Origin: Leucoraja ocellata
Taxonomy: Eukaryota
NCBI GenBank assembly: GCA_036785375.1
Contig: JAWMAR010000023.1
Location: forward strand, 7,564,001-7,628,000
Reading direction: 5' to 3'
DNA length: 64,000 nt
This document shows, one piece after another, positions 1,791 through 62,985 of the stretch. The stretch's first letter is position 1. Every line of letters begins with the position of its first letter. The notes under the pieces are model-generated. The model worked only from the letters and a program-made list of their open reading frames with translations, searched no databases and was not told the origin of the DNA. Both the position numbers and the translations under genes were made by a program.

Positions 1791-1980
1791 GGCACAAAAA
1801 GCTGGAGTAACTCGGGGTCAGACAGCATCTCTGGAGGAAAGGAAAAGGTGACGTTTCGGGTTGAGACCCGAAACGTCACCTATTCCTTTTCTCCAGAGAT
1901 GTTGTCAGAGCCGCTGAGTTACTCCAACTTTTTGTGTCTATCTTCGGTTTAAACCAGCATCCGCAGTTCCATCCTACGCA
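1791..1980 (+). mobile_element. Penelope-like fold-back element (palindrome centred in hammerhead stem II)
   Basis: cacaaaaagctggagtaactc...gacgtttcgggttgagacccgaaacgtc...gagttactccaactttttgtg plus unpaired tail cagcatccgcagttcc. Confidence 0.75.
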
Positions 1981-2073
1981 GGAATATTATGAGAACTGGT
2001 CTTTGTTTTGTTTCCCATTTGAGTGGCAAACTACCATGTCTATTTCTTTCTTTCTTTGTTTTTGTGTGATTAG

Positions 2074-2218
2074 GAGCTCAGGAAAGTCACAGCAGGAGCT
2101 TTTACTGGACCTGATGTGGTCAATTTGGCCCGAGCTCCCAGCTTATGGGCGCAAAGCCGCACAGTTTGTGGATCTGCTGGGATACTTTTCACTCAAGACT
2201 CCACAGACTGAGAAAAAA
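2074..2218 (+). CDS. UBR4: UBR4 exon 2 SSGKSQQELLLDLMWSIWPELPAYGRK...QTEKK
   Basis: gattag| acceptor, AAA|gtaaga donor. Confidence 0.93.
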
Positions 2219-2350
2219 GTAAGAACTATCTATCAATGGACTATGCATAGTATCTGTGGAGAGAGCAGGTCACTTTACTGGGGAATTGGCAGCTCCATCA
2301 TCCCACAATGGTTTTGAGGAATCTAACTGCAGTCTTTGTTTCTATCCTAG

Positions 2351-2436
2351 TTGAAGGAATATTCACACAAAGCAGTTGAGATCCTGCGCACTCAAAACCA
2401 TATTCTCACCAACCACCCCAACTCTAACATTTACAA
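2351..2436 (+). CDS. UBR4: UBR4 exon 3 LKEYSHKAVEILRTQNHILTNHPNSNIYN
   Basis: cctag| acceptor, AA|gtgagt donor; not in ORF track. Confidence 0.92.
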
Positions 2437-2581
2437 GTGAGTTTGAATGTCGATCTTTTATTACTAACAAGTACAAAGTATTTATGTAGAATTGGATTTA
2501 GTAGAAAAAAACAGCAGCAGTATGGTTTCATGTCATTTATCAAGTTGTTAATGAAATATATCTGATTTTGCTTTGTCCCAG

Positions 2582-2669
2582 TATGCTGTCCGGTCTAGTC
2601 GAGTTTGATGGCTACTATCTGGAGAGTGATCCCTGCCTCGTGTGTAATAACCCCGAGGTGCCATTCACT
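2582..2669 (+). CDS. UBR4: UBR4 exon 4 [29 protein letters not shown]
   Basis: cccag| acceptor, ACT|gtgagt donor. Confidence 0.92.
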
Positions 2670-2829
2670 GTGAGTCATGATGTATATTTGCAAAAGTATA
2701 TGCCAGACATCAATAAAGTCGATTTATAGGGAGATAAGGGATAGACTGACCTTGGAGTGAAAGAAAGTTAGTGAATAAACTGACAGAGGTTCATAAAATT
2801 ACAAGGGGCATTGATATAGTAGATAATCA

Positions 2830-3044
2830 AAAATTCTGGAGAAACTCAGCGGGTGAGGCAGCATCTATGGAGTGAAGGAAATAGGCAACGTTTTGGGGGT
2901 CGAGACCCTTCTTCCGTCTGAAAAAGGGTCTCGACCCGAAACGTTGCCTATTTCCTTCACTCCATAGATGCTGCCTCACCCGCTGAGTTTCTCCATCATC
3001 TTTGTCTACCTTTGATTTTCCAGCATCTGCAGTTCCTTTTTAAA
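2830..3044 (+). mobile_element. Penelope-like fold-back element nested in a CR1 3' fragment
   Basis: About 85-bp inverted arms around cttccgtctgaaaaagggtctcgacccgaaacgtt; imperfect TSD tagtagataatcaaaa / tagtaggtaatcaaaa. Confidence 0.75.
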
Positions 3045-3477
3045 TTAGTAGGTAATCAAAATCCTTTTCCTGTGACAGTGGTATTAAAAACACAAGGTCA
3101 TAGGTTTACAGTTAGAGGGAGAAGTTTTAAAGGACATTTGCAAGGAGGGAAGGATTATTTACAAAAAGTGGTTGGAATCTGAAATTCACTGCCAAAGGAG
3201 ATGGTGGGATTGTGTACAATGGCTATGTTCAAGAGATATTTGGGCTGGCATTTGAATAAGCAAGGCATAGAGCATACAGATCTAATGCAGGCAAATGGGG
3301 TGAGTGCAGATGTGGGCCAGCATGGATGCAAAGATCAAATGACCTGTTTCTAGGCTGTACCACTCTGATTCTATGACAACAACTTGTGCCAAACTATGCT
3401 GCCTAAATGATTTCATTACATAGATATTGTCTCGTATTTTGTCCTCATGAATTTAACTTACTAAAACTTTATTTCAG

Positions 3478-3671
3478 AATATTAAACTTTCATCGATCAA
3501 GGTGGATACTCGTTACACAACGACACAGCAAGTTGTAAAACTAATTGGCAGCCACACAATCAGTAAAGTAACTGTAAAGATTGGGGATCTAAAACGTACC
3601 AAGATGGTTCGTACCATCAACTTGTATTACAACAACAGGACGGTTCAGGCCATAGTAGAACTAAAAAACAA
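3478..3671 (+). CDS. UBR4: UBR4 exon 5 [13 protein letters not shown]...QAIVELKNK
   Basis: tttcag| acceptor, AA|gtaagt donor. Confidence 0.93.
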
Positions 3672-4618
3672 GTAAGTGTACGGTGACATTTATGTGTATG
3701 TTAGTGGGGATCATTTTCTTTGGATTTTAGAATTTCCTGAATAACGATCACATGGTTGAGGCAAATTCCAAGTAACTGTGAGCAGTGTTGCAGGTTTCAT
3801 ATCCAGATTCTGAGTGGATGAGTGTGGAGTTATGCAGTGTAAATGTTATTTTCCAATCTGTTTATTTGATCCCTTGCAGTCGTTCCTCATGCTCTTTCTT
3901 TACCTCCTCTCTGATTTTCCTGCATTATCTCCAGCTCCCACTTTCAACAATAACTTTTTCTGTTCTATTTCATCAACAGTTTGGTCATTCAGAAGGATGT
4001 GGCTTCAATTTTCCTAAACCTTTCTCCCCAGGGGATGTATTTAAACTGTAATCGAGGCAACTCTGCCTTCACTGTTTACATACAACTTATCCCTCCAGTC
4101 TCCGATTCCACTTTATCCGATCTCCTCTTATCCCATTGAAATTGGTCATTTTGCACCTGGTCGCCTTTAGACCGTGGAGTGATCTAACATTTTTCAATGC
4201 TGTGAATATTTATTATTCATTTTCACTATCTGGGCATTGGCAGCAAATTACTACGTCTCTCTTTGCTCACAAGACTGTCGTAATGAGCTACCATCATGAA
4301 GCCTTTTAATGATGCAGTGTAGCAAAATAGGTCATGACACCAGGTTCTGTTTTGAAAGAGGTGGCAATTTTGATGATAAATTAACAAGGGATTCAAAGGT
4401 TCAAAGGGTATTTTATTGTCACGTGCACCAATTAGTGATACTCGATTTAGCATAGCCATACAAAAATAAAGCAACACCACACACAACTACGTAAACTACA
4501 TTGTTTTTACAATATAATTTGGATAAGTTTATGTGACAATGTTATATTGATAACCTGGCTGGGTGACATCGTTCGGAATGTCGTGCGTATCACCAACCTC
4601 ATTGGCTTTCCTCCCTAG

Positions 4619-4858
4619 GCCTGCTCGATGGCACAAAGCAAAAAAAGTCCAACTAACACCAGGACAGACTGAGGTCAAGATCGATCTACCACTTCCCATT
4701 GTGGCATCCAACCTCATGATTGAGTTTGCGGACTTCTATGAGAATTACCAGGCATCAACCGAGACCCTGCAGTGCCCACGCTGCAGTGCATCAGTCCCAG
4801 CTAATCCAGGCGTCTGTGGGAACTGTGGCGAGAATGTTTACCAGTGTCACAAGTGCAG
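4619..4858 (+). CDS. UBR4: UBR4 exon 6 PARWHKAKK...[29 protein letters not shown] (Cys-rich)
   Basis: ccctag| acceptor, AG|gtaagt donor. Confidence 0.95.
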
Positions 4859-6404
4859 GTAAGTGGGTTTTTTGAAACCAATTCATGTGATTTGATGGGC
4901 ATAAATAGTGACGTTTAACTTTCTCGTAATTGCCGAGTTTGGAGAAAACTGTCAATTATTCTGCTTAGGTGTAAACTTTGGAAGTTGTTAATATAATCTG
5001 GTAGCATGCATTTTCAAACTTCTGCAGCTCTTGAGAGGATAAGAGGGAGTGACTGGGGTGAGACTGGTCATTGATTATGCTGGCAGTCTTACCGACACAG
5101 CGTGAAGTGTAGATGGAGTCAGTGGAAGGGAGATTGGCTTGTATAGACAAAAAATGCTTGAGAAACTCAAGGGGTGAGGCAGCATCTATGGGGAGAAGGA
5201 ATAGGCGACATTTCAGGTCGAGACCCTTCTGTAGCGATGCACCATCTTGATCAAGTTGGGCAAAAGAGCCTATCTCTGTGTGGTATGACTCTGATTCTCA
5301 TCTGTCCATGCAATCCTGAGCCCTTGTGGCTGCAATAAAATTAAACCATTCAATGTGTTTTAATTAATCTCCAGCATGTACTTTCAGTTTTGAGATACAA
5401 TGCAGTACAAAAGAATGTACTTAATTATGATAATGCAGTCCATTTCAGTTGAAATTAATTTGACACCAGTTTAATTGAAAGGCCATGGTTAATTTTGACG
5501 CTGACTTTGCAGATCATAGTTTTTGATTTCTGAGGCATTCGTTTGGATTGGCCTGGCAGTTTGGCGAAACTGGATTCTGGCAGAACAACCTTCTCATTCT
5601 TGCACATTTTCTAATTGCTGCACAAATAATTCATTGGCTACGGGTTCTTTGAACATCCTGGATTGTGAAGAAGACGAGATTAACACAGGGTTACTGCCAC
5701 CCCTCTCCCCACCCCCCCTCCTCCCCAAATCTCGCATGCATCTCATCCCATTACTCAGTCCCACATTTTCTTTTCCCCACTTTTTCCCTTCCCCCCCCTC
5801 CCATTTTCCTCCTGTATTCTCCCTCCTGCTTTACTTTTCACTCCTCTTTGTCCGTATCTGTCGTCCTTTTGTCTTAATTTTTACCTCCAGACATTTGTCA
5901 CCTACTCCACCCATCTGACCTTCTCAACCACTTTGTGTGTTTTGCTCAAGATTCCAGCCTCTGCACTTCCTTGTCTGCATAAACACAGATCTCTGACATC
6001 CACGATTGTTCAATGGCAAGTCTCATGAAGATATACCATTACATAGAGATACTTGGTCAAGCAAGTAGGTTTAAAGGAGGAGAGTGAGATATTCAGATTC
6101 TTGAAGGGAATTCCAGAATTTAGAGCTAAGGCAGCTGACATTACAGCAAGGGCTTGTCTGAGGCAGCTGAGATTATTGCAAAAGCTTGTCAGGCTGCAGG
6201 GGGTTACTGAGATACAGAGGCAGTGAGAGTGGTGGGGGGTGGGAGGGAGGGGGGGGGAGGGTCAAGTCATGAGAACATTAGCTAAAATATGGACATCAGG
6301 CAGAGTGATCTCCCTTTCAGCTGCATTTGAGAACGCAACTTCTCGGACTAATACGTGGATTAAATTATGATCACCATAAGTAATCGATCTGATATTTTTT
6401 ACAG

Positions 6405-6543
6405 ATCTATTAACTATGACGAGAAGGATCCGTTTCTGTGCAATGCGTGTGGATTCTGCAAGTATGCACGGTTTGATTTCATGCTGTATGCCAAACCATG
6501 TTGTGCAGTGGATCCAATCGAAAATGAAGAGGACAGAAAAAAG
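6405..6543 (+). CDS. UBR4: UBR4 exon 7 [20 protein letters not shown]...EEDRKK
   Basis: ttacag| acceptor, AAG|gtgaac donor. Confidence 0.93.
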
Positions 6544-6660
6544 GTGAACGCAATTAAATAAATGTTTTCATGGATTTCAATCGCGATGCCCTTTTTCTGT
6601 ACTAAATTCTATGAGTTTATTACTGGGGAGATTATTTGACCACAACATTTTAAACATAAG

Positions 6661-6873
6661 AAAAACACAAAGTTCTGGCAGAACTCAGCGGGTCAGGCAA
6701 CATTGGCCGAGGGAATGGACAGGCATTTTGGGTCAGGACCTTTCTTGCAAAGAAGAGTCCTGACCCAAAACAATGCCTGTCCATTCCCTCCACATGTGCT
6801 GCCTGACCTGCTGAGTACCTCCAGCATTTAGTGTGGTGCTCAAGATTCCAGGATCTGCAGTTTCTTGTGTTCC
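6661..6873 (+). mobile_element. Penelope-like fold-back element, older subfamily
   Basis: Inverted arms plus tail gctcaagattccaggatctgcagtttcttgtg. Confidence 0.7.
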
Positions 6874-6933
6874 CAGCTTTTTTAACATAACTTTTTTCAT
6901 TTTGCAATAATTTAACCTTGTTTTATTTTGCAG

Positions 6934-7059
6934 GCAGTGACAAACATAAATACTTTGTTGGATAAAGCTGATCGTGTGTATCATCAGCTGATGGGACACA
7001 GGCCACAGCTTGAAACTTTGTTGGTGAAAGTCAGCGAGGCTGCTCCTGAGAAGCCACAG
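6934..7059 (+). CDS. UBR4: UBR4 exon 8 AVTNINTLLDKADRVY...APEKPQ
   Basis: ttgcag| acceptor, CAG|gtaaag donor. Confidence 0.93.
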
Positions 7060-7302
7060 GTAAAGAAGGGATGTGGGCCTTCAAACTATAGCCAATCCAC
7101 TGATGTGATGAACACAGTGTTGCCTGGCATCTTACTGAACTTAGTAGATGGAGCAGTGTAGTTGGACACGATGATTTGAGATCTGGGTTGAAATGATGGG
7201 ATTTGAGGAGATGTTTAAAGGTGGAAAGTAATGGACTGGAATTGTCATTGAAAGTTCAAAAATAATCTCCAAATATTAGAAAGTGAAACACGATATCTTT
7301 GG

Positions 7303-7452
7303 TAGGCACAAAATGCTGGAGTAACTCAACGGGGCAGGCAGCTTCTCTGGAGAGAAAGAATGGGTGATGTTTCGGGACGAGACCCTTCTCTCAACTCCAG
7401 CATTTTGTGTCTATCATCGGTAAACCAGCATCTACAGTCTCTTCCTACACAA
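7303..7452 (+). mobile_element. Penelope-like fold-back element, internally deleted
   Basis: Same arm and tail motifs; TSD gatatctttg on both sides. Confidence 0.7.
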
Positions 7453-8424
7453 GATATCTTTGAAATGTGCGCTGTCTCACGTCTGCGGTGAAGTAGTGAA
7501 GATGGCTCTGCTACATTCAGTTCCCATTTTAACATTTGCTGATTGACACCTAATTCAGATACTAAAGAATTTTGTTTCTCAGACTGTAGTCACTCTGTAC
7601 TTCCAATCATTGCATCTAATCTGCATTTGATGGAATCATTTGGTGCAGGAGGAAGCCACTTGGATTATTATGCTTATTTCTACGATGATAGCTCTATCTC
7701 AGTTATCCCAGCAGTTTCGTAACAACAGCCATTTTGTTTCCTTTTTTAAGGATTTATATAATTTTCTTTTGAGACCATGTGAATCAGCTTCCATCATCAT
7801 TTTTAGCAGAGCCTTCACATCACATTCACTGCATGAAACATCTTCTTGCAACCCCCTGGCTTTGTATTCAGTTATAGCTGGAAACAGCTTCTCCCTCTCT
7901 GCACTACCAAGAGCTTACATGATTTTTAACATTTAATTTCCTTTGTCTAAGGAGAACTTCCAATTTTTGCTATTTTCTCCACATAAGTGGGTTATCTCCG
8001 GGTAGTCTGGTTTCTTCCTGCTCTCCAAAGATGTACAGTGATAGGCTAATTGGCATGGTAAAATTGTAAATTGTCCATTGTGTGTGTGTGTAGGATAGTG
8101 TTAGTGTGCGGGAATCACTGCTCGGAGCAGACTCGGTGGGCCGAATGGCCTGTTTCCGTGCTATATATAAACTAAAGTCTTCCATACCTTGCACCATCTG
8201 AGGAAGTACAAAACATTGACATCCTTCCATTGATGCCCAGAATTATACATTGGACTGGACTCTAGCCAAAGCCCAAAGAATAAAAAAGATTTAGCATAGT
8301 TTAGGTGTATACTTTACACTCTATTTTAATGCCAATGATTCTGTTTCTTTGTATCAACTGTGGGGTCAAGCTAAATTTTGAAGAAGTACTTGGACTTGCT
8401 TGTAAGAACATGCTTGTTTTTCAG

Positions 8425-8553
8425 GATGATTCCAGTGCTGTTACTGGAATCAGCTCAACAGCAGCGAGTGTAAATCGCTACATTCAGCAACTGGCCCAAG
8501 AGTATTGTGGAGACTGCAAGACATCCTTCGACGAGCTGTCCAAAATCATACAG
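8425..8553 (+). CDS. UBR4: UBR4 exon 9 DDSSAVTGISS...FDELSKIIQ
   Basis: tttcag| acceptor, CAG|gtaaca donor. Confidence 0.93.
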
Positions 8554-8783
8554 GTAACAAAAAACTATAGGTTTGCGCAGCACATATACGATTAACCCAG
8601 CAATGAACAATAAGGAAGTGATAACATTGAGAATTTTATTATGATGATAGTTTGATGAGGGATGTGAGTTTAAGAATGTGTATTATTTTTCAACATTTTC
8701 ATTTGCACAGGGATCAGTCATATTTGAACATATAATCTAACAATTTAAAAGACTAACTCTTGAATGTTTTACTTGTTTGGCAG

Positions 8784-9127
8784 AAAGTTCTGGCTTCACG
8801 GAAGGAACTGCTGGAATATGATCTTCAGCAGCGAGAGGCTGCTACAAAGTCTTCCCGATCAACAGCTCAGCCCACATTCACCGCGAGCCAGTATCGAGCA
8901 CTATCTGTCCTCGGGTGTGGGCACACCTCTTCCACAAAGTGCTATGGCTGTGCCTCAGCTGTTACCGAGCATTGTATAACACTGCTTCGTGCCCTCGCTA
9001 CAAATAGCACCATCAGACAGATCTTAGTTTCCCAGGGCCTTATCCGTGAGCTATTCGATTACAATCTGCGGCGAGGCACTGCCTCAATGAGAGAAGAAGT
9101 CCGACAACTGATGTGCTTGTTAACGAG
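8784..9127 (+). CDS. UBR4: UBR4 exon 10 KVLASRKELLEYD...QLMCLLTR
   Basis: tggcag| acceptor, AG|gtatgt donor. Confidence 0.94.
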
Positions 9128-10585
9128 GTATGTAGCCTAAGCAAACTGTGTTATATGAGAGAGCAGATTTTTCTGCAATCAATACATGAGATCGATAGTA
9201 TGAGAGTTTTGGAAAGAACTGGGTAGTGCTGATTAAATTATTTCTGAGACCTTTGTGCCAAAATGTAACGGAAGACGGTGATTTACCCACTCTCTGCTCT
9301 TTCTCTACCTCAACTGCTTCAGGTGTGCAGTAATTTGAACCCAATTGTTAGCAGCCACAGCACAGTTCGATATCAGGTCACGAATAGAACAGACAAGAGT
9401 CTTGAGATTTTGCACCGGCAATATTAATGCCTGCTTTTATTATAGTTGCAGGGAATGCAGACACTACCCAGTGACCTCAGGAAACGGAATGTGCCTCACA
9501 TACCAAGTACTTACTGTGTTCTGAGTTTAATGTACAAAACTAGCTTACTTCATAGATAATCAGATGACAAATGGGAGGTTTCTGCACCCATTTGTGATCA
9601 TTTTAAATTCAGGTTATTGGTTTCATTTCACGGTGAAGGGCAAATGAGACTTGGCCTTAATTATAGACAGGAGGATTTTGAATTAACAAGTTTATAATGG
9701 AAAATGTGGGAATTTGGCCAGCTGACCATTGGAATGATCAGGTCTTGAGGTAACAACTTCATTAGTGAGTGTTTCAGCGGAAAGTATTCTGAGGTGGGAC
9801 TGAGATGTATAATGTGACAGTAACTATTCCTGGGAGGATGTGAAGTCGGTATTAAAACTTGGGTTAAAGAGATGGGAAATATGAATCTTGTTCAGCTTGG
9901 GGCAATGTCCAGGAAGAGATTATTTTACCCTGTATGCCTGCAGACATATCTTCAACGGAAATACTCCTGGAGATTACTTGCTAAATACTACAGCTGAATT
10001 GATTACCGCGAGATCCAACAAATGACCTGTTTTTGAGATTGTGTTAGTCAACGAGTCTGTAGCGTTTGTGGATCAACGTAACAGAGCCTTGATTTGTCAT
10101 CTTATTTGAAAGACCACTTGACAATGCAGCATTCCTTTGGTCCTGTCATTCGAGATTGTGTACTCAAGCCCTAGTGTGAGGCTTGAACCCAGGGAGCGTT
10201 GCTGCATCTTGTCTCCAGCAACCAAGTTCAATCCTGATATCTGGTGCTGACTGTGTGGACTTTGCATGTTCTCCCTATTACAGCATAGATTTCCACATCC
10301 CAAAGACATGCCTGTTGACACGCCATTACGTGTCCCTGTAAATTAAGCTTAATGTTTTCAGGGAAATAAGTTGTAGAATAGGACCCTTGGGATTTCTCTG
10401 AGAGCTGATATTGACTTAGTGGCCCAAATGTCAGTCTTTTTTGGTGTAATGTGAAATATAAGACTTATTGACTCTGCAGCAGAAGGCCGCACAACTGGGC
10501 CAAGCTGCCATTTTGTGCATTAGTTGAATGTGTTTTGTTAAGGGTAGCATTTCTATGACTACAACATTTTGCTCTGTATTTGCAG

Positions 10586-10676
10586 AGACAACCCCGAGGC
10601 AACACAACAAATGAATGACCTGATTATTGCCAAGGTTTCGACTGCGCTGAAGGGACACTGGGCCAATCCTGATTTA
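10586..10676 (+). CDS. UBR4: UBR4 exon 11 DNPEATQQMNDLIIAKVSTALKGHWANPDL
   Basis: ttgcag| acceptor, TTA|gtgagt donor. Confidence 0.92.
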
Positions 10677-11664
10677 GTGAGTAAAGTTGCCAATCCAAAT
10701 TTTGTGATCGTTTTGGCTTAAACTCACTAACATATTCCCAAATGCAAAATCTTACAGCAGGTAGCATAATTAAACATTATTTTGCTTTAAAAATAATTTC
10801 TGATCTATTTGCGAAGTTCAGTTTAGACTTTATGATAAAAGATGTAATCTACTTCAAGTGGCTGTGCACCGCTTGTCGATAACCCAATGATTGAATATTA
10901 TATTTAGAATCATACTCCAATTATATTAGTGAAGGATTGTTAGCTTAGTGTAGTAAACAAAAATAGCATTGAGAGATTTTACAGTGAGCTTATTGTGCCC
11001 ATGGGATCGGCCTCAGATTTTCAGATCCTCCTCAAAGATGTACAGGTATAAACATGTGCAAATAAAATAAATTTGATCTGTTGTATGATCAGTTTAGTGA
11101 CTTGTTTGAAAGGTTGTTTGACATAAATACTGCAATGTTCTTGGCAGTCGATGACAATGTTTGCATTAATTAAGAGCATGTACGATGTAGGAACAGGCTT
11201 GTTCACAATGAATGGCGCTGCTGGCTCAAGGGTCGAATGGCCTCCTCCTGCACCTATTTTCTATGTGTGGCGGAGGAACATGATGCCAACTCTTAAACTA
11301 ATGTTAACGACCACCACGCTCCATATCCCTCCATTCCTGCAAATCCATGTGCCTATCTAAAAGCCTCCTAAACACCACTACTGAATCTGCCTACATTAAT
11401 AATGCAACTTAAACATTGTGAAACATCAAATAGCAACATCCATTCATGTAGACACCATCCACTGCCCTAGACTCATCACTCACCTTCATCACCTCCTCAA
11501 AAAACTCAATCAAGTTTGTAAGACATAACCTTCTCCGGACAGAACTATGCTGACGGTTTCTAATTAACTCATTCTCTTATAAAACATTCTTTCCTCGAAG
11601 AATTTTCTCCAATAGCAACAGCGAGATTTTTTTTGCTGCTGACTGACCAAGGAACTAGCATGTC

Positions 11665-11965
11665 ATGGTAGCGTGGGCTTAAGTTACCAGGATCGCAGCG
11701 ATATTTGTGGACCCTTGATCCAGAAATGAGAGTGATTCCTGCCATGGAGCTGGGGAATTGAAATAAAATAACTAAATAAATCTGGAATTAAAAACTGTCC
11801 TCAGTCACAATAACCACAAAACTAAAGGATTATTAAATATCCCCGTCTGTTTCACTGGTAGAGATTGAAACCTGTCTTCATTACCCAATCTTCCCCTAAA
11901 CATGGTTGACATATGCAACATGTTCAGCAGCAATTAGCGGTGGATAATAAATGTGGCCATGAAAA
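11665..11965 (+). mobile_element. Old elasmobranch SINE-like repeat
   Basis: gccatggagctggggaattgaaat...aaatctggaattaaaa...caattag..tgg..aataaatg motifs. Confidence 0.4.
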
Positions 11966-12327
11966 GCTGGCATTTATAGTCCACATTTGAATATTTTAAT
12001 AACATGTATTTTTTAAACATTCGATATTTTCAAAACAAAATTGTGTTGTGTAGGCTCTTTCATTTGAATGGGTCTTTTTGCATTTTGCAACCATGGAATG
12101 GAGTGAGGTTTGCCACAACCTATTGATGTACAAGTTCAGAACATGCTCTATGAGAACATTTATAATGATGTTGGAGGAAGTGAGGCTGCTGAGAATTAAT
12201 GAAGGCTGCCAGATCTAGCATAATTATTAACACGGTCACTAACTTGCACACGTATTTGTTTACACAATCTCAAATTGTGTAAATATTTCCCCCCTGTTTG
12301 AACTGACGTGTTTGTTCCCACTGGCAG

Positions 12328-12412
12328 GCGAGCAGTCTTCAGTATGAGATGCTGCTGCTGACTGATTCAATTTCAAAGGAGGATGCATGTTGGGAACTGC
12401 GACTCCGATGTG
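12328..12412 (+). CDS. UBR4: UBR4 exon 12 ASSLQYEMLLLTDSISKEDACWELRLRC
   Basis: tggcag| acceptor, G|gtaagt donor. Confidence 0.92.
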
Positions 12413-12592
12413 GTAAGTAAGCAAAGCTCAAGTGTGTGATCGCACATTGGTGCCAATCATTATCCTTTGAGTCCTAATGAAGCATTGACATTAAAAGAGA
12501 CTTTATGCATCATTACATGACCCACGAGCCTTTCTGAACAACATCATAGAGAACTTCAATGGTATTTTTTGTGCCTTCTCTCCCTTCTGCAG

Positions 12593-12720
12593 CACTAAGT
12601 CTGTATCTAATGGCTGTGAACATAAAGACTCCTGTGGTTGTTGAGAACATCACTCTGATGTGCCTGCGTATCCTGCAGCGACTGATTAAACCACCTGCCC
12701 CAACTAGCAAGAAAAACAAG
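12593..12720 (+). CDS. UBR4: UBR4 exon 13 ALSLYLMAVNIKTPVVVENITL...SKKNK
   Basis: ctgcag| acceptor, AAG|gtgtgc donor. Confidence 0.92.
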
Positions 12721-12832
12721 GTGTGCGTGCGGACTGGCGATCTAAGTCAATCGGTCTGCTCTTTGATTTCAAGCCAATTGATTTCTGTCCGTCTTGTCGG
12801 GTTTATCTTCATGATCCTTATCTCTTTGGCAG

Positions 12833-12962
12833 GATATCTCTGTTGATACACTTACAACAGTCAAACCTTATAGCAATGAGATACATGCACAGGCTCAAGC
12901 ATGGCTCAAGAAAGACCCCAAGGCATCGTACGAAGCTTGGAAGAAGTGTCTACCTGCCAGAG
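12833..12962 (+). CDS. UBR4: UBR4 exon 14 DISVDTLTTVKPYSNEIHAQAQAWLKKDPKASYEAWKKCLPAR
   Basis: tggcag| acceptor, G|gtagag donor. Confidence 0.9.
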
Positions 12963-13720
12963 GTAGAGGAAGTTTTATTTGTGGCTTATGCTTCTATTAT
13001 GTTACATCTTAAGAGCCATTTCAGAATAGGTGCTTAAACTATTTGCATATCGAAAATAAAGAGCGGAGTTGCCTTAATATTATATTTTGGTGCCATATTT
13101 CTGAGTGGCTTTGGAAAGCTGTAATGATGATCGTTGTATATTGCTGAAACAACCCTAATTGCTTCATTTCTGCAACACCATCTGGCAGGTTTATTTATTT
13201 AAATAATCCCTGATTATAGAAGCTGTATAATCAAGCAGAGTTCTTGTTCTTTTAATCTACGTCTTGTTTCATTAAATCCCACTGAATGCTCCAGCACTCA
13301 ATTAATGCCAAGATTCTGTCAGTTAATGCGAAATGTGTTAGAAAGGTATAGAATAACTCGTGACAACAAAACACCTATTTGGCATCGCCTTCTGACGGTG
13401 TCTCTGATAGTTTCCCAGGAGGGAAATCATTAGTTAAAAACGACATGTTGGAACCTCTCACACCACTAACTCTACAGTGCTCCATTGTTCCTTTCCAGTG
13501 AACTGCTTGTGATGTTCCCGATCTTGCAATTAACTGAAAATTAGTCTTGACGCCAATACCAGGTCTGTGCGGTTCCCAACAAATGCCAAAGCAGAATAAC
13601 AATTTTTAACGTGTTCCTATTTTTTCTTATATTTATAAGGAAACAGAAGATGGCCATGCCAGTTTCTAGGAAGCAATCCCAATACTTCCATTCCTAGTCT
13701 CTTTATTTCCTTGCATCTCT

Positions 13721-13886
13721 NNNNNNNNNNNNNNNNNNNNNNNNNNNNNNNNNNNNNNNNNNNNNNNNNNNNNNNNNNNNNNNNNNNNNNNNNNNNNNNN
13801 NNNNNNNNNNNNNNNNNNNNNNNNNNNNNNNNNNNNNNNNNNNNNNNNNNNNNNNNNNNNNNNNNNNNNNNNNNNNNNNNNNNNNN
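13721..13886. other. Assembly gap (166 N)
   Basis: Run of n. Exons 14 and 15 join in frame across it (PAR/GLD), so no constitutive exon needs to be hidden there. Confidence 0.98.
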
Positions 13887-14149
13887 ACCCACATTAATGA
13901 GTAACTTGTAGTGTTCATTTAACCTGTTTTTTTAGAAACACAAAACAAATTATGGATTTTACAACAGTAAAATTGTTGCAAAGGCAAAGTGAACGTGTTA
14001 GTGGTTATTAATGTGGGAATGAATGGGTTTATTTTCAATCCATTTTATTGATTTGAAGTTCATTGTTTCCAACGAATTATTGTGTTTTTTTTGGAGATTT
14101 TTCATCTGTGGACAATGACTGATTTGGCATTTACTCCCTCCCCTGTCAG

Positions 14150-14307
14150 GTCTGGACACAGAAGGAAAGACACAGAGTAAAACTGATTTGCGGCACCTTT
14201 ACCTCATGGAGAAGTATGTTTGGAAATGGAAACAGTTCCTGAGCAAACGTGGCAAGAGGAATTCCCCACTTGATCTCAAATTAGGACACAATAACTGGCT
14301 CAGACAG
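14150..14307 (+). CDS. UBR4: UBR4 exon 15 GLDTEGKTQSKTDLRHLYLMEKYVWKWKQFLSKRGK...NWLRQ (basic/aromatic, probable calmodulin-binding helix)
   Basis: tgtcag| acceptor, CAG|gtaatg donor; CaM assignment from recall of human UBR4. Confidence 0.92.
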
Positions 14308-14733
14308 GTAATGGGAAGAAGTGAATGTAGAAGTGAGAGTAATGTTGACATAGACGGCTCGGATTGTAACTGAAGATTTTAGAGATACATGTGGCAGGTG
14401 GGATCCAGTTAAACTGCTCCGGCTGTTTAATATGTTGTTGGTGTGGTTCAGGCTTGCTGGGACATGCCCAGCTTGCCAGACTTTACACACAGAGAGAAAG
14501 AAAAGCTAGCAGGCACAATGGTTCATATATAGACACAAATAAAGGACATGTTGTTTTCATGGTCTTTGGTGATATAATTATATTGGTGAATTATTAAGAT
14601 GGGCAGAGCAATGGCAACTGGAGTTTTACATATTTTACAGAATTAAATTCCAGTTGCCATTGCTCAGCATGGTCTTTGTGCTACATATGAATCACGCGTG
14701 TTATATAGTGACAATATTACCCGCCTGACTCCA

Positions 14734-15113
14734 AAACACAAAGTATTGGAGTAACTCAATGGGTCATGCAGCATCCTTGGTTCTTGGTTTCCTGGTCCTC
14801 CAAAAATATTCCAAATGGAATTTAAACTGGAGGTGGTGGAGGGTGGACTTAAGCAAAAAAGGGTTCTTGGGGAAAAAAGAGCTACCTTAAATTTAGTTGC
14901 GGCTGGTTGGGTAACTATGGTAGGGTGAAGACTATTCCATGCTTTAATTGTGCGGGGTAAGAATGAATTGCTGTACATGGAGAAAATGGAGAGGCGACAT
15001 TAAGACCCGAAACGTCATCTATCCATTTCCTCCACAGATGCTGCCTGTCCCACTAAGTTCCTCCGGCATTTTGTGTTTTGCTCAACCTTCCACCACCTCA
15101 GTTCCCTGGCTCT
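14734..15113 (+). mobile_element. Penelope-like fold-back element interrupted by a minus-strand LINE 3' end (about 14777-14978)
   Basis: Arms flank an insert encoding YSNSFLPRTIKAWNSL, a CR1/L2-group ORF2 C-terminal motif. Confidence 0.7.
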
Positions 15114-15147
15114 CCATTTTATAAAAGCTACTAATTTTACTTTTCAG

Positions 15148-15257
15148 GTATTATTCACTCCTGCAACACAAGCTGCAAGGCAGGCTGCGTGTACAATCGT
15201 GGAGGCACTGACCACCATCCCCAGCCGCAAACAGCAGGTCCTTGATCTACTCACCAG
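15148..15257 (+). CDS. UBR4: UBR4 exon 16 VLFTPATQAARQAAC...VLDLLTS
   Basis: tttcag| acceptor, AG|gtattt donor. Confidence 0.92.
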
Positions 15258-15402
15258 GTATTTTTCTCATCATTCGGAAACCAAGCAATAGTTTGAAAAG
15301 TCCTTTATACAACCATGGGACATAGATGGTGGTAGCTTATTTTTGTTTATCTGTAAGATATTGTTATTTCCTCTTCAGAATCGTGTTGCTTTGATCTTTG
15401 AT

Positions 15403-15708
15403 TTCAGTTTAGTTTAGAAATACAGCGCGGAAACTGGCCCTTCGGCCCACCTAGTCCGAACCGGCCAGTGATCCCCGCACACAAGCACTATTCTACACAC
15501 TAGGAATAATTTACAATTATACCAAGCCAATTAACCTACTAACCTGTACGTTTTTGGAGTGTGGGAAGAAACTGGAACACCTGCAGAAAACTCACGCAGG
15601 TCTCGGGGGGAAAACGTACAAACTCCATACCAACAAGCGCCCGTAGTCGGAATCGAACTGGGTCCTTGGCGCTGTAAGGCAGTAACTCTACCGCTGTGCC
15701 ACCCTGCC
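15403..15708 (-). mobile_element. HE1/V-SINE-like SINE
   Basis: Reverse complement of the 54058 family. Confidence 0.78.
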
Positions 15709-17078: not shown

Positions 17079-17122
17079 AAATGCTGTTGGCTGATTTTTA
17101 AATTGTGTTTTTGTTTTACCAG

Positions 17123-46303: not shown

Positions 46304-46307
<4 letters not shown>

Positions 46308-51136: not shown

Positions 51137-51331
51137 GTGTGTAGTAATGAACTGCAGATGCTGGTTTAAATCGAAGGTGGACACAAAAATGCTGGAGTAA
51201 CTCAACGAGTCAGGCAGCATCTCTAGAGAGAAGGATTGGGTGACGTTTCGGGTCGAGACTGGAGAAGGGTCTGGACCCAAAACATCACCCATTCCTTCTC
51301 TCCAGCGATGCTGCCTGACCCATTCAATTAC
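51137..51331 (-). mobile_element. Penelope-like fold-back element
   Basis: Tail on the left (gaactgcagatgctggtttaaatcgaag); arms around gggtcgagactggagaagggtctggaccc. Confidence 0.72.
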
Positions 51332-54057
51332 ACGGAGCAGGTTGGACTGCTTCCTCAAAAACACTCCAGAGGCAGACTACCATGCGTGCCCTTCTTCCTC
51401 ACTCTGACAGCCACATGTACTGCACTACGCCACCGATGCTATTGCCATTATTCTCCTCCCTTTCTGACTTATGAAAGTTCACGTGCGTTTGAGAGAGTGT
51501 GGGTGGCACTCAGGTAGCTGGAGTCAAAGATACTGTAAAGCCTAAATTTATGGAATTTACATTGAAGGTAAAACTTCAGTTGCACTTGCACTAGAAACTG
51601 TTTAGACATGTCTGTGATTATATGGAAACAATTACATTTTAAGTAAAAATTATTGACTTTTCAATGTTACTTGTAGCCTTGCAGCAATTTAATTAATGAA
51701 GAATTGTTCCACACCCAATTGCATTATCCAGTATTCATTCACATGGCATCTGAAGCAAAACATGAAAGGTGTGGTTCCCCTCCTTGCACGAAAGGTATTT
51801 TTGATTGCACAACATGTCTTAATCATAAGCTTAGCAGTCTAACCTTTCAAATAATTGCCGATGGATGTGTTAACTTGTTTTTGATGCGTGAGTTTAGAGG
51901 GTGGCTTCATTTTTTGCTGTTAGCCCTCCATTGCTTTCAGAAACATGAGATGATACATAAATAGACCCACTTCCACTCAGCATAATGGACAACTTTCTCC
52001 AATGATGCTTATCTTCATTGGAAATCTGTAGCCTCAGTTATGGACTCGTGGTTTCTGAGGATATCCAGAATTTAGTCTTTATGTTCAACGGACAAGACAG
52101 GTGGTTACCATATGGTACAGGAATGGCAAAAATTCCCGCCAAATACCATTAATCCTTTTTAAAGCACAGAGTGCAATTAAATAATGCCATAAAGATCCAA
52201 TTTCCTGTTTCCTTTTTATCAAATATCACAAAAAGATAACATGATTACATCAGCCCATCTACTCCAGATCACCAAAGCTTCTGAGACTTCTGCCAACAGA
52301 ATGTATTCCCCCAAGTCCAGGCTACAAGTAACAATTGATTGAAATCTGAAAGCTGGCTTCTGCAATTTGTCAAACCCCATGGCCAGGGAACTTGGTAACA
52401 TTGAGGATCTCCTCCCAGATGACATTTAAGACAGACAGCAAAGCATTCCCCTAACTGAAATGTTGTGTTCTTTGCATTCTTGAGATTCTTCAAATGCTTT
52501 CTGAAATCTCAATGAAGTGAGCAGGATGACCTTGATGTCAATTTTACAGTCTGGCGATCAAGAGACACCATGTTATCTTAAACATTAAATCAGTTTGGGA
52601 TTATTATACAGTAATTCAAGCAAAAAATGAAAATGACAGGTTAACAGAAATGATGGACAGCAAACAAATCCAGTATAAGAAGGTAAAATGTTTTGTGAGA
52701 AAATAAAAGAGGAATGCAAGTATATTTTCAGTGAAAAGAAACTGAAGGGTGTAGATAAAGAATTCTTGTTTTAAAACATTTTTAAATACAATGGATTTGA
52801 ATGCACTTTCAGAAAGTGTCATGTTAAACAATTATGTTAGAAACCTTACAAAATCGTGCAGGGCTAAGGAGAAAGAGTGGGATGTGGAACTAATTGGATA
52901 AATCTTTCACAGACGCCACACAAAGGTGGGCACACAAATGCCCTCCTGCACAATTAGATGATAGAAAAAGCTCAGGGAAAAGTCATGATTTTAACCTAAC
53001 CTCTTGCCAAAGATGCTGCCTGATCAGCTGTGCATTTCTGACATTTTGTTTTAAATTTCAGATTACTAGCATCTGCATTATTTTGCTCTGGAATGGTTGT
53101 GTGTTAATTCCTTTAGATTTTGAGTCCAATTCAAGAGATAGCAGCTTGGAGCATTTTTTTCTCATGGGTTGTGAAGTAGTGGTTTGGAAAATGGAGAAGA
53201 AAGTGAAAATTGGGGTGACAGACATTTAGTTATGTATTTAATTTAAAAAAAAATGTAAGCTATGAATATTCAGTTAACGCTAAGGAACATTTGTAAGCAT
53301 ACAATGCTGAGGAAAGTAAATATGGAGAAGGTGTCCCTATCATATCCATGGTTGACCTTTGCTCAAAACAATCCTAGAGCAAGATTATCAGTTATGAAGC
53401 TAAAAGATTAACACATTTGCATATAGTCAAAGAGTACGCCAGTGCCTATGTTCCAAAATGTTCAATAGAAAGTCGCAGTTTGATATTTATCAAGGAAATC
53501 TACCTCCTCCTCCAACTCATCAAAGCAAAATTCTCAGCATTTGCTCCATTATGCTATCAGAACTTCACACTTCAGTAGACATTTAGACAGACTAATGTAC
53601 AAGAAGGGTTCAGGGGGGAATGGGCTAAATGCAGGCAAATGGGACCTATAATGCCAACTTGGTCACCTTGGCAAGTTGGGCCAAAGGGGCTGTTTCCATG
53701 CTGTATGCTCTGAGTCTAATTAGGCTGTCAGGTGTTGACAGATGCATAGAGTCAGGCAGGGCTACTTGGCAGTGACGAGACAGAAGAGCACAAAGTGTCA
53801 TCAGCAAGCAATTCTCACCAGATGCAGGTTAAATAATGCTGTAAAAACACAACTGTGCGATCTGCATATAGGAGCTTGGTCGGTGACCAAATAGTAGATG
53901 AAGCGGCGGGGATGCGGTGGACTGGTTGCAGGGAGTGGGTCTTCCCTGTGGGTTTGGAGCAGTCAACAGATCAACGCGACCTGCTCACAGGATCAGGGGG
54001 AAGTGCTGTGACCCAACACCGTCCCCAGCGCTGGTATGAGATGCAACAAAGGAACGC

Positions 54058-56323: not shown

Positions 56324-56504
56324 AGACTCAAGGAACTGCAGATGTTTGAACCTTAAGCAAAACACAATGTGCTGGAGGAACTCAGCAGGGCAGGCAGCAT
56401 CAGTGGGAGGTATAGCATCTGAAGAAAGTTCCAACCCAAACATTGCCTATCCATTCCCTCCACAAACGCTGCCTGCCCTGCTGAGTTCCTCCAGCACGTT
56501 GTGT
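56324..56504 (-). mobile_element. Penelope-like fold-back element with 17-bp TSD
   Basis: TSD ttcactgaatttaattg (56307-56323) / ttcactgaatctaattg (56505-56521); tctgaagaaa at the centre. Confidence 0.75.
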
Positions 56505-59218: not shown

Positions 59219-59460
59219 CAGTTTAGTTTAGTGATACAGTGCATAAACAAGCCCTTTGGCCTACTGAGTACGTGACGACCAGCAATACCATACTCTGGCA
59301 CTATCCTATCAACTAGGGCCAATTTACAATTTTACTGAAGGCAATTAACCTACAAATCTGCATATCTTTAGAGTGTGGGATGAAACCGGAACAAACGGAG
59401 AAAGCCCACACGGTCACTGGGAGATCGTACAAACTCCGTACAGGCAGCACCCATAGTCAC
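59219..59460 (-). mobile_element. HE1/V-SINE-like SINE, 5' truncated (other partial copies about 1190-1385, 7975-8177, 44020-44166)
   Basis: Same family. Confidence 0.7.
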
Positions 59461-60600
59461 CCATTTAAGAAAGTCCTCAACAGCATTAGGGCATGTATCA
59501 GTAACTAAAAAGTCACATTGTTACCACCAACAGAGTGTCAGGCAATGCAGGTAATGATCATTTCCAGCAGGAGACGGTGGCATTCGAGTGTTTCCATTAG
59601 GAAATAAAAGAGGGCAGTAAGGAGCAATGACATCCATTTCAAGCATCACCAAAACTACAAGTGGCAGAATCTGTGGGCCCATCATTGGCCTCAGTACAGA
59701 CAACAGTGGAAGCACATCGTCCTTGACTCTGATGGAACACCTAAGAATTACAGTGCAATTTTCTTGGTGAAACATGTTCTCAAATACTAATTGCTTTGTA
59801 TTTTTGTGGGTAGGTGGCTGCCAAGTCAACCAATTTGTTTTTGTATGAGGGAAATTCCTGTTAACTCCCTCGAAACACACACCCTGTTCGTATGACATCA
59901 AGAATATTGGTAATGAGAGAGGTTTGTGTTTATGCTCAGGGCAGAGGATGTGAGCAATATTTCTGATTTTCAGTTTCAAATGACATAAGTGATGGAAGCA
60001 TCCTTATAGGCAATTAGGATATGTTAGAACTTGAATAGCTCCAATGAAAAATAGATTATTTGCATTATTACATTACTCATTACCTGCCACCTCAATTGGC
60101 TCTAGAAAATCCTTTGCTGAATATGAAATTGCAAAAGCTACTATTATAAATATACCCATTTTTTCTATAAAGTTTATGCACACAACACAATTGGCTACAT
60201 TACATCACCACAGAACAACACATGATATTTACAGATGGTTGCATATAGATGGGTGAAGTCAATAGGATCAATCACTGGGAAATAGTGTTGTTTGGGATAG
60301 AGTTGTATTGGGTGGAAATTTTAGTGCAGTCTGATATCTTCCCAATTACATTATTTGAATGTAATACGAACTTGCTGAAAACTTGACAATTTCTGTATCT
60401 AGCTGGAATATGTTGGGCATTTTATACTGAACATTTGGCATAATTAGGTTCTATACAAATTTTCAACTTCAGATGATACCCCCACTTTGCAATAGAGCAT
60501 AGAACAGTAAGCAGAGGACTTCAGTTTACTATCGTCAGAAAAGTAAAACCATATGACAAGAGCTTAACCTTTGAAATGGATAGTGATAAAATGCAAGATT

Positions 60601-61719
60601 CATCATCATTTTAATTTATTTTTTTATTTATTGTTAGCTTTATGTTTTATTAGAAGTACAATAAGTTACAGTAATACACACCACATATATCTTATTACAT
60701 TTGTTGTACCCCTTCATTTTTTGAGCTTTAAAAAAGATAGAAATAAAAGAAGTAAGGAAAGTGAGAAAGAGTCGTGATAGTGCAAGAAAGTGTTGGGAAA
60801 AGAAAGCCCATTAGAAAGACAGTTAGAGAAGAAAGTTAAGAAATAGACCCTAGAAAAGAAAGAAAGAAAGAGAAACAATCGCTCTATTATAACAAACTAC
60901 ACAAAAAAGGATATACCAACCATATTTTTCATCCCGTTACCAGATCCTGGCACCATTTATTTTTTAAATTACTGTTGCACCTTATGCTTGTAGTAAGTCC
61001 ATAAATGCAGACCACGTCTTTTGGAAGTGGTCTGGTTTGCCTGCGAGGAGGAGTCTCATATCTTCCAGATGTAATGTTTCGAACATGTTTGAAATCCACA
61101 TTTTTATTGTTGGTATAGGAGCGTTTTTCCAGAATTTGAGTATAAGCTTTTTTCCCGTTATTAGCCCGTAATTAAATAAATTATTTTGAAACACATTTAG
61201 TTCAGGGCTACCTTCCATTATTCCAAAGATAATCCATTCTGCTTTTGGTATCAGTTTTATTTTAAATAATTTTGTGAAGATTTCAAATATTTTGTTCCAG
61301 AATGTTTGGATTTTTATACAAAAAACAAAAGAGTACGCTATGGTAGCTCTTGAGACTGACATTTATCACAAATGGGTGAGACGTTAGGGAAAAGTCAATA
61401 TTTTAAATATTTTCAAATATGTGACTATCTGAAAAAATATACAGAAGACTATCATAATATGCCTCCAGACTTACTGGACGAAGCAATGAAGACAAAGGCT
61501 GAATCGGCAAACTTAATATCATACATATATAACACTATTTTAAATATAGAAATACCTACAACTGACGGTATTAGAAGAGACTGGAAACAAGAACAGGCTA
61601 TAAAAATTTAAAAAGAGAGCTGGGATAAACACTTACTATATGTGCATAAATGCTCGATCAACATAAGACACACTCTAATTCAATTCAAAACATTACACAG
61701 ACAATACTACTCAAAAACC
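60601..61719 (-). mobile_element. L1-clade LINE, 5' truncated with 5' inversion
   Basis: ORF2 C-terminus on the minus strand (PNVSPICDKC...FWNKIF...KTWSAF); upstream ORF2 segment on the plus strand; 13-bp TSD aaaatgcaagatt. Confidence 0.85.
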
Positions 61720-62861
61720 AAAATGCAAGATTTATAATGGTGTTTATAAGTTTCCTGGGAAGTTAGTAGAAACAAAGTTCAAGAGCAACGAGGTGATAAG
61801 ATGGTGGCATGTTGATAACAACAGTGAGGTAGTGATCTTAAGGTTACAGCTTAAAACATGGATAATCGTAGGTTATTGCAAACTAAATGGCTCCATTAGA
61901 AGGCATCAGTCAAAGCAAAACCGAGCCCAAAATTCACATGGCCCCATTTCCACATCACAAGGTTGTTCCCAGGCCCTCAGGCCCATTGGAACAGGCAATA
62001 ACTAAGTGTTTGCCCATGTCAAAACATTTCCAGTGCAAGCTAAATTTTTGCTAGATGATTCACAGATGTGATTGAAGCTTTTTTCCAGTCCAACCTTCTT
62101 CATTATTTAAGCATAAAAATTGAGGTATTTTAATTTGTGGAATATGGAGGGAGAGAATCGCAAACTGAAATCTGGGGTATGGCTGGAAACAGTGGTGACT
62201 TCAAGGAGAGGACATAAGCTGAGGAAGGTTGGAAGATCCAGTTTATGTGAGAGGGGGAAGCTGACGATTTCTTCACCTGTACATCACAGAACATATCGGA
62301 GATACAAATGTTCTATTTGGTTCCAGATAACCCACGTTGTAAACAGTGAAGTAAGATTGCAGGCGCCCTTCATCTACTGCTGTCCACGGTGGTGTCCATG
62401 ATATGCCAGTTGCAAATATGTCATCTTCAAAACTAATGACAAATATATCTATCATTTGATGGGTCAACTTTATCACAGTTCCACTGGTGAAGTGTAACTC
62501 AAGTTTCATAAAAGGAGAATAAAAAATGTTCCAAATACAGGGTAGTCTTGCTGAGACGTCTGTTCCACACTTCTATAAATCAAAGCAGTCGAATTACTGT
62601 CCTACTCGGAGTTTGGTTACAAAGTTCTCGCGTGAAATGTCTCTTGGGTTTTGTGAACAATCCTGGTGCAGGAAGTTTGTATCCATCCAAAGCTTCTACA
62701 TGAGATGCTGCTTTAAGAATGCGGCATATATCATCAAGGAACTTCACTATCTGAGCCATGCTCTCTGATTGCTACTACCATCGGGCAGTAGGTACAGGAG
62801 CTACAAACCCCGATTCAGGAATAGTTACTTTCCTACAACCATCAGGTTCTTGAACCAATGT

Positions 62862-62985
62862 TTAAGAAAGAATGCAGATGCTGGTAAAATCGAAGGTAGA
62901 CACAAAATGCTGGAGTAACTCAGCGGGTGAGGCAGCATCTATGGAGAAAAGGAATTGGCGACGTTTCGGGTCGAGATCCTTCTGT
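62862..62985 (-). mobile_element. Single-arm Penelope-like insertion nested in a Rex1-type LINE end
   Basis: gcagatgctggtaaaatcgaaggtagacacaaaatgctggagtaactcagcggg...gacgtttcgggtcgagatccttc. Confidence 0.7.

Follow-up and report, generated by a model that had tools for sequence, protein, structure and literature searches.

Fold-back repeats with a minimal hammerhead core in Leucoraja ocellata, probably the dead ends of a Penelope-like element

A 64-kb stretch of Leucoraja ocellata DNA (contig JAWMAR010000023.1, positions 7,564,001 to 7,628,000; GC ~40%, with a 166-N assembly gap at 13721-13886), hereafter the window, carries many copies of a short non-coding repeat built around a minimal hammerhead ribozyme core, a large share of them folded back into two inverted arms. 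These copies are probably dead, 5'-truncated ends of a Penelope-like element (PLE), likely of the Neptune clade, which turned back on themselves where a micro-palindrome immediately precedes the core. Descent from a PLE is highly probable; membership of the Neptune clade, judged by sequence comparison, is likely; and, with somewhat less confidence, we favor the view that the copies are mostly dead-end products rather than a hairpin that copies itself. The footprint of a copy would correspond to the last 90-130 bases of the PLE, comprising the minimal hammerhead core, ~65 further bases, and a tail.

Copies, core, and insertion marks

Arms were sought with an nhmmer profile iterated from one copy at a threshold of E<=1e-3, which finds 32 arms at 20 loci (3086 of 64000 bases) and nothing in 10 order-2 Markov shuffles; a tail fragment at 5921 (E=0.006) provides a 21st locus. 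On this count, all 21 positions listed in a preliminary description of the same DNA, made from the letters alone, are real. The single layout which that description ascribed to them holds for about half: both arms are present at 12 of the 21 loci, and the other nine are single arms or fragments. Among the 12 fold-backs, both arms reach the core in six (2833, 6660, 26888, 33143, 33830, and 34951), and the remaining six show deletions, a fold within helix II (1791), or a central insert. Four fold-backs have a CAG-T-CTG centre in common, in identical orientation. The density, 21 copies per 64 kb or about one every 3 kb, would extrapolate from this one window to ~700,000 copies per 2.2-Gb skate genome, if the window is typical.

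The family majority core reads CUGAAGA-A-GGGU-CUCG-ACCC-GAAA-C-G-U-C, with the boxes CUGANGA, GAAA, and NUH in order. It equals the consensus published for minimal hammerheads of metazoan PLEs (Cervera and de la Pena 2014, PMC4209133 Fig S3), including the bulge after A9, the G10.1-C11.1 pair, and the palindromic 15.2-16.2 pair, so that the earlier identification of a minimal, PLE-type hammerhead core stands. Helix II opens with the G10.1-C11.1 pair, and a 4-bp stem with a 4-nt loop suits it better than a 5-bp stem with a 2-nt loop; 87% of its cells are paired in 14 arms, and the bases in the middle of its loop rank with the most variable of the non-CpG core positions. Helix III is loopless and palindromic (majority A-C-G-U), its central dinucleotide being CG in 10, CA in 7, and TG in 5 of 27 arms, the pattern of CpG decay. 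Helix I amounts to only 2 bp on tail-side arms and is absent on most mirror arms, with 57% of cells paired.

Individual copies are worn. The exact 13-nt start of the core is present in three arms, and all 11 invariant core bases are kept without an indel in 3 of 32, once a single inserted base in each of the arms at 33245 and 62984 has been taken into account. A minimal-hammerhead descriptor matches two of the 32 arms, against 0.01 expected, both with a mismatched 15.2-16.2 pair. In none of the 32 arms are core, helix II, and helix III all preserved, and the descriptor never matches both strands of one copy. An Rfam scan of the kind that the preliminary description had proposed yields no match across the window that reaches the gathering score; within 33000-37300 and 37095-37175, hammerhead models stay unmatched even at E<=10. 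This is weak evidence, as loopless forms may simply go unscored.

Target-site duplications (TSDs) mark many of the insertions. The preliminary description had mentioned several TSDs of 10-17 bp; six loci have clear ones, of 13-17 bp, with scores exceeding those of all 420 cross-locus and 1483 random pairs used as a null, two more are borderline (p ~0.001), and the other 13 have none. The AT fraction in the six clear cases is 0.56-0.81. The unpaired tail, earlier put at ~35 nt, measures ~32-38 nt from the end of arm pairing to the TSD in our own reading of the TSD-bounded fold-backs; it stands on one side only, and no poly(A) was seen after it. Arm ends fall into two clusters, an inner site and the tail end, and outer ends are ragged. 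The 5' edge of the core, where the profile starts by construction, is the beginning of 19 of 32 arms; beyond a few bases, the junctions show no common sequence further upstream of the core. None of the 32 arms starts within 2 bases of the cleavage site, which argues for uncut RNA as the template. Two copies (33902-33911 and 62975-62995) keep extra upstream bases with a second short palindrome just before the core, and show a slip deletion between two CTGA repeats; this second palindrome may add to the junction hotspot.

Four of five features of endonuclease-bearing PLEs are found: an inverted head-to-head terminus (12 of 21 loci), a one-sided tail, a variable TSD without poly(A), and a hammerhead in the terminal repeat. 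For the fifth, a parent that joins an RT plus GIY-YIG ORF to this terminus, the window gives no example and the evidence is indirect (see below). PLEs typically carry an inverted, 5'-truncated copy beside the terminus and, at one end, a tail of 30-40 bp (PMC8557442). In a rotifer PLE the TSDs measure 8-10 bp and the tail 31 bp, and palindromes where inverted copies join were read as self-priming (PMC3846280). The window family resembles such insertions in its tail-less head-to-head inverted copy, one-sided tail of about that length, junction palindrome, TSD, and AT-rich targets. It differs in being only ~220 bp long with no open reading frame (ORF), in having its junction almost always at the core edge, and in TSDs longer than the rotifer's.

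Decay, conservation, and a probable Neptune parent

Both decay and predicted folding suggest that the copies are not working ribozymes. CpG sites are conserved at 0.68 and G12, which lies within a CpG, at 0.53 (27 arms, 15 with G and 11 with A), a decay no different from that of CpG sites in general. Non-CpG core positions are conserved at 0.925, against 0.849 for base-matched positions (p=0.05; 19 arms reaching the core), which fits constraint in source elements followed by neutral decay and is not proof of it. The whole copy at 33143..33368 is predicted to fold into a hairpin of -142 kcal/mol (z -16.9). Helix II has a probability of 0.0 in whole copies and of 0.02-0.16 in isolated arms, and minimum-energy dimers of three window cores do not adopt the hammerhead fold. 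The copies therefore look dead, in keeping with the earlier caveat that most would be catalytically inactive, given worn cores and the two descriptor matches among 32 arms. The companion proposal, that each copy encodes a core on both strands and yields one in either direction of transcription, is not supported by the copies at hand: two intact cores never occur in one copy, the native 2-bp partner for helix I is missing from the mirror arm, which keeps G12 in 3 of 11 cases, and in any transcript of a whole copy the core is predicted to pair with its own antisense. A core on both strands is thus true of the ancestral layout only.

The two arms of one copy are 0.794 alike and arms of different copies 0.714, against a maximum of 0.762 in 5000 re-pairings (10 of the 12 fold-backs); nine rare variants recur in the two arms of one copy, against 2.4 expected. 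Both arms of a copy would thus stem from one template, or would have been homogenized later.

A repeat of the nurse shark bears on conservation over a longer span. NSRE1 is a non-coding repeat of ~100 bp, unclassified and present at 7 per bacterial artificial chromosome or 17 in 170 kb (Luo et al. 2006, PMC1513397); it was described as specific to the nurse shark, and its probe did not hybridize to little skate. The first 18 bases of that probe match seven arms at <=3 mismatches, against 0.01 by chance. This 18-nt stretch spans helix II, GAAA, and the palindromic helix III, and it differs from the window majority once, a U-A pair becoming U-G with pairing kept. The bases after the core diverge, in a comparison that covers the probe rather than a full NSRE1 consensus. 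The core would thus be the best-kept part of the repeat between shark and skate, whose lineages split more than 250 million years ago. The match is the best evidence for selection on the core, coming from one short sequence. The passages on NSRE1 in its original description draw no link to hammerheads, palindromes, or Penelope (PMC1513397).

Evidence on the parent comes from 21 database proteins matched by translated arms, and the link is thus indirect. Named gene models among the 21 matches number three from Leucoraja erinacea and one from Hypanus sabinus. None of the 21 carries a Pfam reverse transcriptase (RT) or GIY-YIG domain, and most are exonised repeat copies. P0003, P0004, P0014, and P0019 are little skate and stingray gene models that include translated pieces of the repeat, likely as annotation artefacts or through exonisation. 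Beside the element, P0002 and P0021 have in common a stretch of 54 residues that is 74% identical between them. We took this stretch to be an off-frame reading of the end of a PLE endonuclease, and then scored it against published alignment rows. With Neptune motifs drawn from the endonuclease rows of PMC8557442 (Fig S2), the shifted frames of P0002 and P0021 are compatible at 14 and 15 of the 17 positions of a two-block Neptune endonuclease pattern; shuffles, 500 for each protein, reached at most 12 and 13, and the remaining 22 proteins at most 12. In both P0002 and P0021, the two Neptune motifs settle on one and the same register, and motifs from Poseidon and Nematis do not; the Neptune endonuclease C-terminus fits the stretch better than either, clade membership being indirect and through a C-terminal motif only, with neither an RT nor a linker zinc finger of the parent seen. 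In P0002, ~66 codons separate the end of the endonuclease-like stretch from the core that lies downstream, as would be expected of an endonuclease followed by a 3' untranslated region (UTR) and the terminus. The off-frame stretch appears to be good, although not conclusive, evidence for a Neptune parent. Of the earlier inference of a PLE family, the PLE origin stands, on the inverted end, the one-sided tail, the long variable TSDs, and this indirect endonuclease link.

A pyrimidine-rich stretch at 5700-5920 directly precedes the tail fragment at 5921; given that the element is preceded by similar proline- and leucine-rich translations in P0002 and P0020, this stretch could derive from the 3' UTR of the parent. 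The possibility that the arm encodes the opening part of the parent ORF, as it does in the Poseidon element of the anole, was rejected: no frame is open across subfamilies and, unlike in Poseidon, the frame that starts in the hammerhead hits a conserved stop in our own reading.

Formation of the fold-backs and competing readings

The fold-backs could have formed in a short series of steps. A PLE GIY-YIG endonuclease, presumed from the TSDs observed, would nick fairly AT-rich DNA in a staggered way. RT would then start within the RNA at one of two sites ~35 nt apart, giving ends with or without the tail; the two clusters of ends are seen in the window, and their proposed cause follows an anole PLE in vitro, which on AT-rich DNA nicks both strands and extends them, starts RT at two internal sites whose spacing equals the tail, and mostly uses uncut RNA (PMC11167929). 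Synthesis would usually stop at the 5' edge of the core, where the native CAGU and the CUG of the core form a micro-palindrome, and the template would be uncut RNA. The mirror arm could arise by snap-back self-priming, or from a second cDNA made at the other nick and annealing through three bases, two routes that are indistinguishable here. Once inserted, copies would decay neutrally with the core locked in a long hairpin, and the core would be constrained only in source elements, acting as a dimer or with the help of protein, as published for other PLEs. Pointing to dead ends are a single arm with its own perfect TSD (37058-37149), the fold inside helix II at 1791, the likeness of arms within a copy, and the micro-palindrome as a junction hotspot.

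Several results weigh against this account. Among all 263 stop-free stretches of at least 62 aa in the window (a Pfam scan that set aside the 1027 stretches of 30-61 aa), no coding remnant of RT or GIY-YIG was found and only UBR4 scored convincingly; the preliminary description had likewise reported no ORF and no poly(A). The 17-position Neptune pattern was chosen after the shifted frame had been seen, and so was not blind. Single Neptune motifs reach only p 0.005-0.03, and for the two motifs 1 and 2 of 20 other proteins roughly equal these scores or exceed them. The endonuclease-like stretch follows the element in P0021, and P0022 and P0024 carry it yet fail the pattern test. The link to a parent thus consists of two predicted proteins read off-frame rather than of parent DNA; none of 12 candidates among longer proteins is a longer carrier of the stretch, an Atlas search with it gave no usable match, and Pfam finds nothing on the proteins that carry it. 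A search of representative proteins gave six matches and no longer carrier with RT, and the supplements of Craig 2021 contain no copy of the element's motif. The preliminary description had named two signs of function in the core. Its excess conservation is seen over base-matched positions and falls to 0.925 vs 0.908 (p=0.26) without subfamily-diagnostic sites; covariation of the hammerhead helices, helix II included, shows no excess over shuffles within the window (0.130 vs 0.126 in 14 of the 19 arms reaching the core, a small and closely related sample). Lastly, the sharp common length and small side-specific signals would fit a self-copying hairpin equally well.

That hairpin is the most serious rival. 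It would be a self-propagating, non-autonomous PLE in which a Neptune protein, starting at the tail, copies transcripts of a ~220-nt hairpin in trans; only the tail-side core would be maintained, and the mirror core would drift. We consider it unlikely. The very sharp inner boundary, the lack of a long parent body at any of the 21 loci, and the identically oriented centre of four fold-backs all speak for it, as does the report that sequence of the pseudo-long terminal repeat (pLTR) is enough for mobilization in trans (PMC3846280). Two arms from the same side resemble each other slightly more than two from opposite sides do (+0.008, p=0.012 over 512 label flips); G12, kept in only 3 of 11 mirror arms, survives in 12 of the 16 others, tail-side or single (p=0.022 before correction, for one of 87 columns); and arm-arm mismatches read on the tail strand are G-U in 45 cases vs A-C in 28 (p=0.06). 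Transcription-coupled strand bias was rejected as the source of the G-U excess, counts by genome strand being 36 vs 37; a SINE control carried a consensus bias and was set aside. No asymmetry survives multiple-testing correction, however, and the side effect is tiny beside the likeness of arms within a copy, which extends to private variants common to both arms of single copies. The arm with its own TSD at 37058-37149 and the helix II fold at 1791 are independent junction events, and a hairpin as stable as the one predicted would make a poor template for RT. A fuller version, in which an ancient Penelope parasite common to sharks and rays is retrotransposed as such a hairpin from its tail by a Neptune protein, has its tail-side core under selection, and is the same as NSRE1, seems slightly less likely still. 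Overall, dead ends are favored, the self-copying hairpin is a minority reading, and what remains goes to other rivals or to readings that we have not listed.

Three further readings seem very improbable. Palindromes of ~200 bp at high density with no ORF would suit a miniature inverted-repeat transposable element (MITE) or a foldback DNA transposon with long terminal inverted repeats, its resemblance to a hammerhead being incidental; such elements have symmetric conserved termini and a fixed short TSD, whereas the window copies have long, variable TSDs, a one-sided tail, ragged outer ends, and a single arm with its own TSD, and their most structured motif is central and fits a 20-base ribozyme consensus. 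Non-LTR retrozymes, tandem type I hammerhead units expressed as small circular RNAs, fall in the same 150-450 bp size class, and they are likewise non-coding, hammerhead-bearing, and PLE-related, having been proposed as derivatives of PLE pLTRs. They form head-to-tail tandems (PMC7229834), of which the 32 arms contain none. They are depleted in introns in Xenopus, and were reported in the one chondrichthyan sampled (bioRxiv 10.64898/2026.07.22.740005), whereas the window copies are dispersed inverted monomers with TSDs, mostly intronic. The cores in the window are minimal rather than canonical and face opposite ways, and no copy begins or ends at the cleavage site; the comparison with retrozymes drawn earlier does not hold in the published sense of the term. 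That some copies serve UBR4 as working intronic ribozymes or regulatory hairpins might be suggested by the 17 of 21 copies in the span of the gene and by the three arms with all invariant core bases. No arm is intact in core, helix II, and helix III, however, the helix II probabilities given above are low, and decay looks neutral; minimal hammerheads cleave poorly even as dimers (PMC4209133), and eight of nine Xenopus dimers did not cleave (bioRxiv 10.64898/2026.07.22.740005).

Genomic setting and significance

Table 1. Copies of the hammerhead repeat, selected cores, and the host gene in the 64-kb window
Feature	Position	Strand	Flanking repeat or remark
Fold-back turning inside helix II, no CUGANGA on either strand, tail present	1791..1978	+	Weak 13-bp flanking repeat 10/13, not significant
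UBR4 3' part, host context outside the element	2300..48703	+	Pfam matches 6364-48194; limits read from exon-like frames
Fold-back, youngest-looking	2833..3045	+	TSD 2817-2832 / 3046-3061 (15/16)
Minimal hammerhead core of copy 2833..3045, G8 mutated to A	2918..2945	+	
Single arm without tail, core start damaged	5143..5233	-	
Arm end and tail fragment, E=0.006, after pyrimidine-rich stretch	5921..5974	+	
Fold-back, older subfamily	6660..6873	+	TSD 14/17, borderline
Fold-back, most of sense arm deleted	7302..7448	+	TSD 7288-7301 / 7449-7462 (13/14)
Fold-back interrupted centrally by ~220 bp of unrelated sequence (14780-15000), no Pfam match	14733..15110	+	
Fold-back, long centre (~90 nt), sense arm largely deleted, mirror arm with CUGAUGA variant	17977..18200	-	
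Fold-back, older subfamily	26888..27115	+	TSD 26872-26887 / 27116-27131 (15/16)
Single arm, internal deletion, without tail	29760..29831	-	
Degraded single arm without CUGANGA	31943..32030	+	
Complete fold-back, tail ~33336-33368	33143..33368	+	Perfect 16-bp TSD 33127-33142 / 33369-33384
Fold-back, CAG-T-CTG centre, sense core start deleted	33830..34034	+	
Fold-back, perfect 1-nt-spacer centre at 35034-35046	34951..35163	+	
Core of copy 34951..35163, descriptor match, 15.2-16.2 mismatched	35041..35068	+	
Single arm from C3 to inner end site	37058..37149	-	Perfect 13-bp TSD 37045-37057 / 37150-37162
Core of single arm 37058, descriptor match, 15.2-16.2 mismatched	37122-37149	-	
Truncated arm and tail, without core	39518..39616	-	TSD 11/12, borderline
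Old degraded single arm	47283..47380	-	
Fold-back, CAG-T-CT centre, then deletion in sense core	51140..51334	-	Best NSRE1 probe match, 1 mismatch/18
Old degraded arm and tail	52992..53086	+	
Fold-back, sense core deleted	56324..56504	-	TSD 56307-56323 / 56505-56521 (16/17)
Young single arm and tail, one extra base within CUGANGA	62860..62986	-	

Most copies lie in the introns of UBR4, whose Pfam families match exon-sized frames along much of the window and whose last exon likely ends at 48703; the few others come just after the gene (Table 1). The single arms at 5143, 29760, 37058, and 47283, the four within UBR4 that keep part of the core start, are all antisense to the gene, and most fold-back tails lie on the sense strand. 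The bias could reflect selection against unsequestered sense cores, although four arms are too few to tell. Within UBR4, parts 271-338 and 302-376 of a Pfam profile overlap across the frames at 37320-37517 and 38236-38480, which may be profile fuzziness or a partly duplicated exon.

Other repeats share the window. A second family, of ~280 bp, has 14 copies at E<=1e-5 (18765, 15404, 22166, 54074, 40718, 59218, and 8 more), and presumably resembles the tRNA-derived HE1/V-SINE families of sharks. ARAGORN finds no tRNA in the window and misses this SINE-like family too, so that its result is little informative. Further repeated fragments at 1627-1696, 11191-11390, 16835-17080, 49923-50165, and 55366-55509 presumably resemble the 3' ends of CR1/L2 long interspersed elements (LINEs), and the insert in the fold-back at 14733 is presumably LINE-like as well. 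A 126-aa stop-free frame at 60982-61362 (minus strand), with no Pfam match, is assumed to resemble the end of L1/Tx1 ORF2. Short, perfect-looking hairpins at 14603-14668 and 58246-58292 are unrelated to the hammerhead family.

Much of this anatomy is known: the inverted end, the tail, and cores on opposite strands are textbook features of PLEs. Dispersed single motifs of truncated PLEs, and opposite-strand pairs 100-700 bp apart, were already described (PMC4209133), and the minimal hammerheads of that work share with the window family the consensus, the bulge, and the loopless palindromic helix III, some having a 2-bp helix I. The window family differs in its helix II of only 4 bp and in two cores that abut back to back; its density, if the window is typical, is far above the ~4,000-9,000 motifs per genome given for coelacanth and Xenopus. 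Two supplement files of that study contain no shark or skate term. An expansion of PLEs in whale-shark introns has been noted (10.1101/443036), and Penelope is not mentioned in the skate genome paper. The top listings of a literature search include no description of the family as a PLE or hammerhead in sharks or rays; repeat libraries may already name it. Dfam reportedly describes Penelope hairpin remnants in vertebrates. What seems to be new is the link to NSRE1, the junction at the core edge, and the density.

The window reveals no new ribozyme class and no working ribozymes in UBR4. It does offer a probable identity for a major orphan repeat of cartilaginous fishes, comprising NSRE1 and its skate relatives, a repeat that contaminates gene models of Leucoraja erinacea and Hypanus sabinus. 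Should the less likely hairpin parasite prove to be correct, it would be a Penelope counterpart of short interspersed elements (SINEs), with several hundred thousand copies per genome if the window is typical, and might outnumber every other sequence of ribozyme origin in a vertebrate. In either case, long hairpins spaced roughly 5 kb apart in introns would supply much double-stranded RNA in pre-mRNAs. For PLEs more broadly, the copies form a large natural data set on how inverted ends are made and on the purpose of a weak hammerhead, and their junctions, at the core edge and never at the cleavage site, agree with the use of an uncut RNA template in vitro (PMC11167929).

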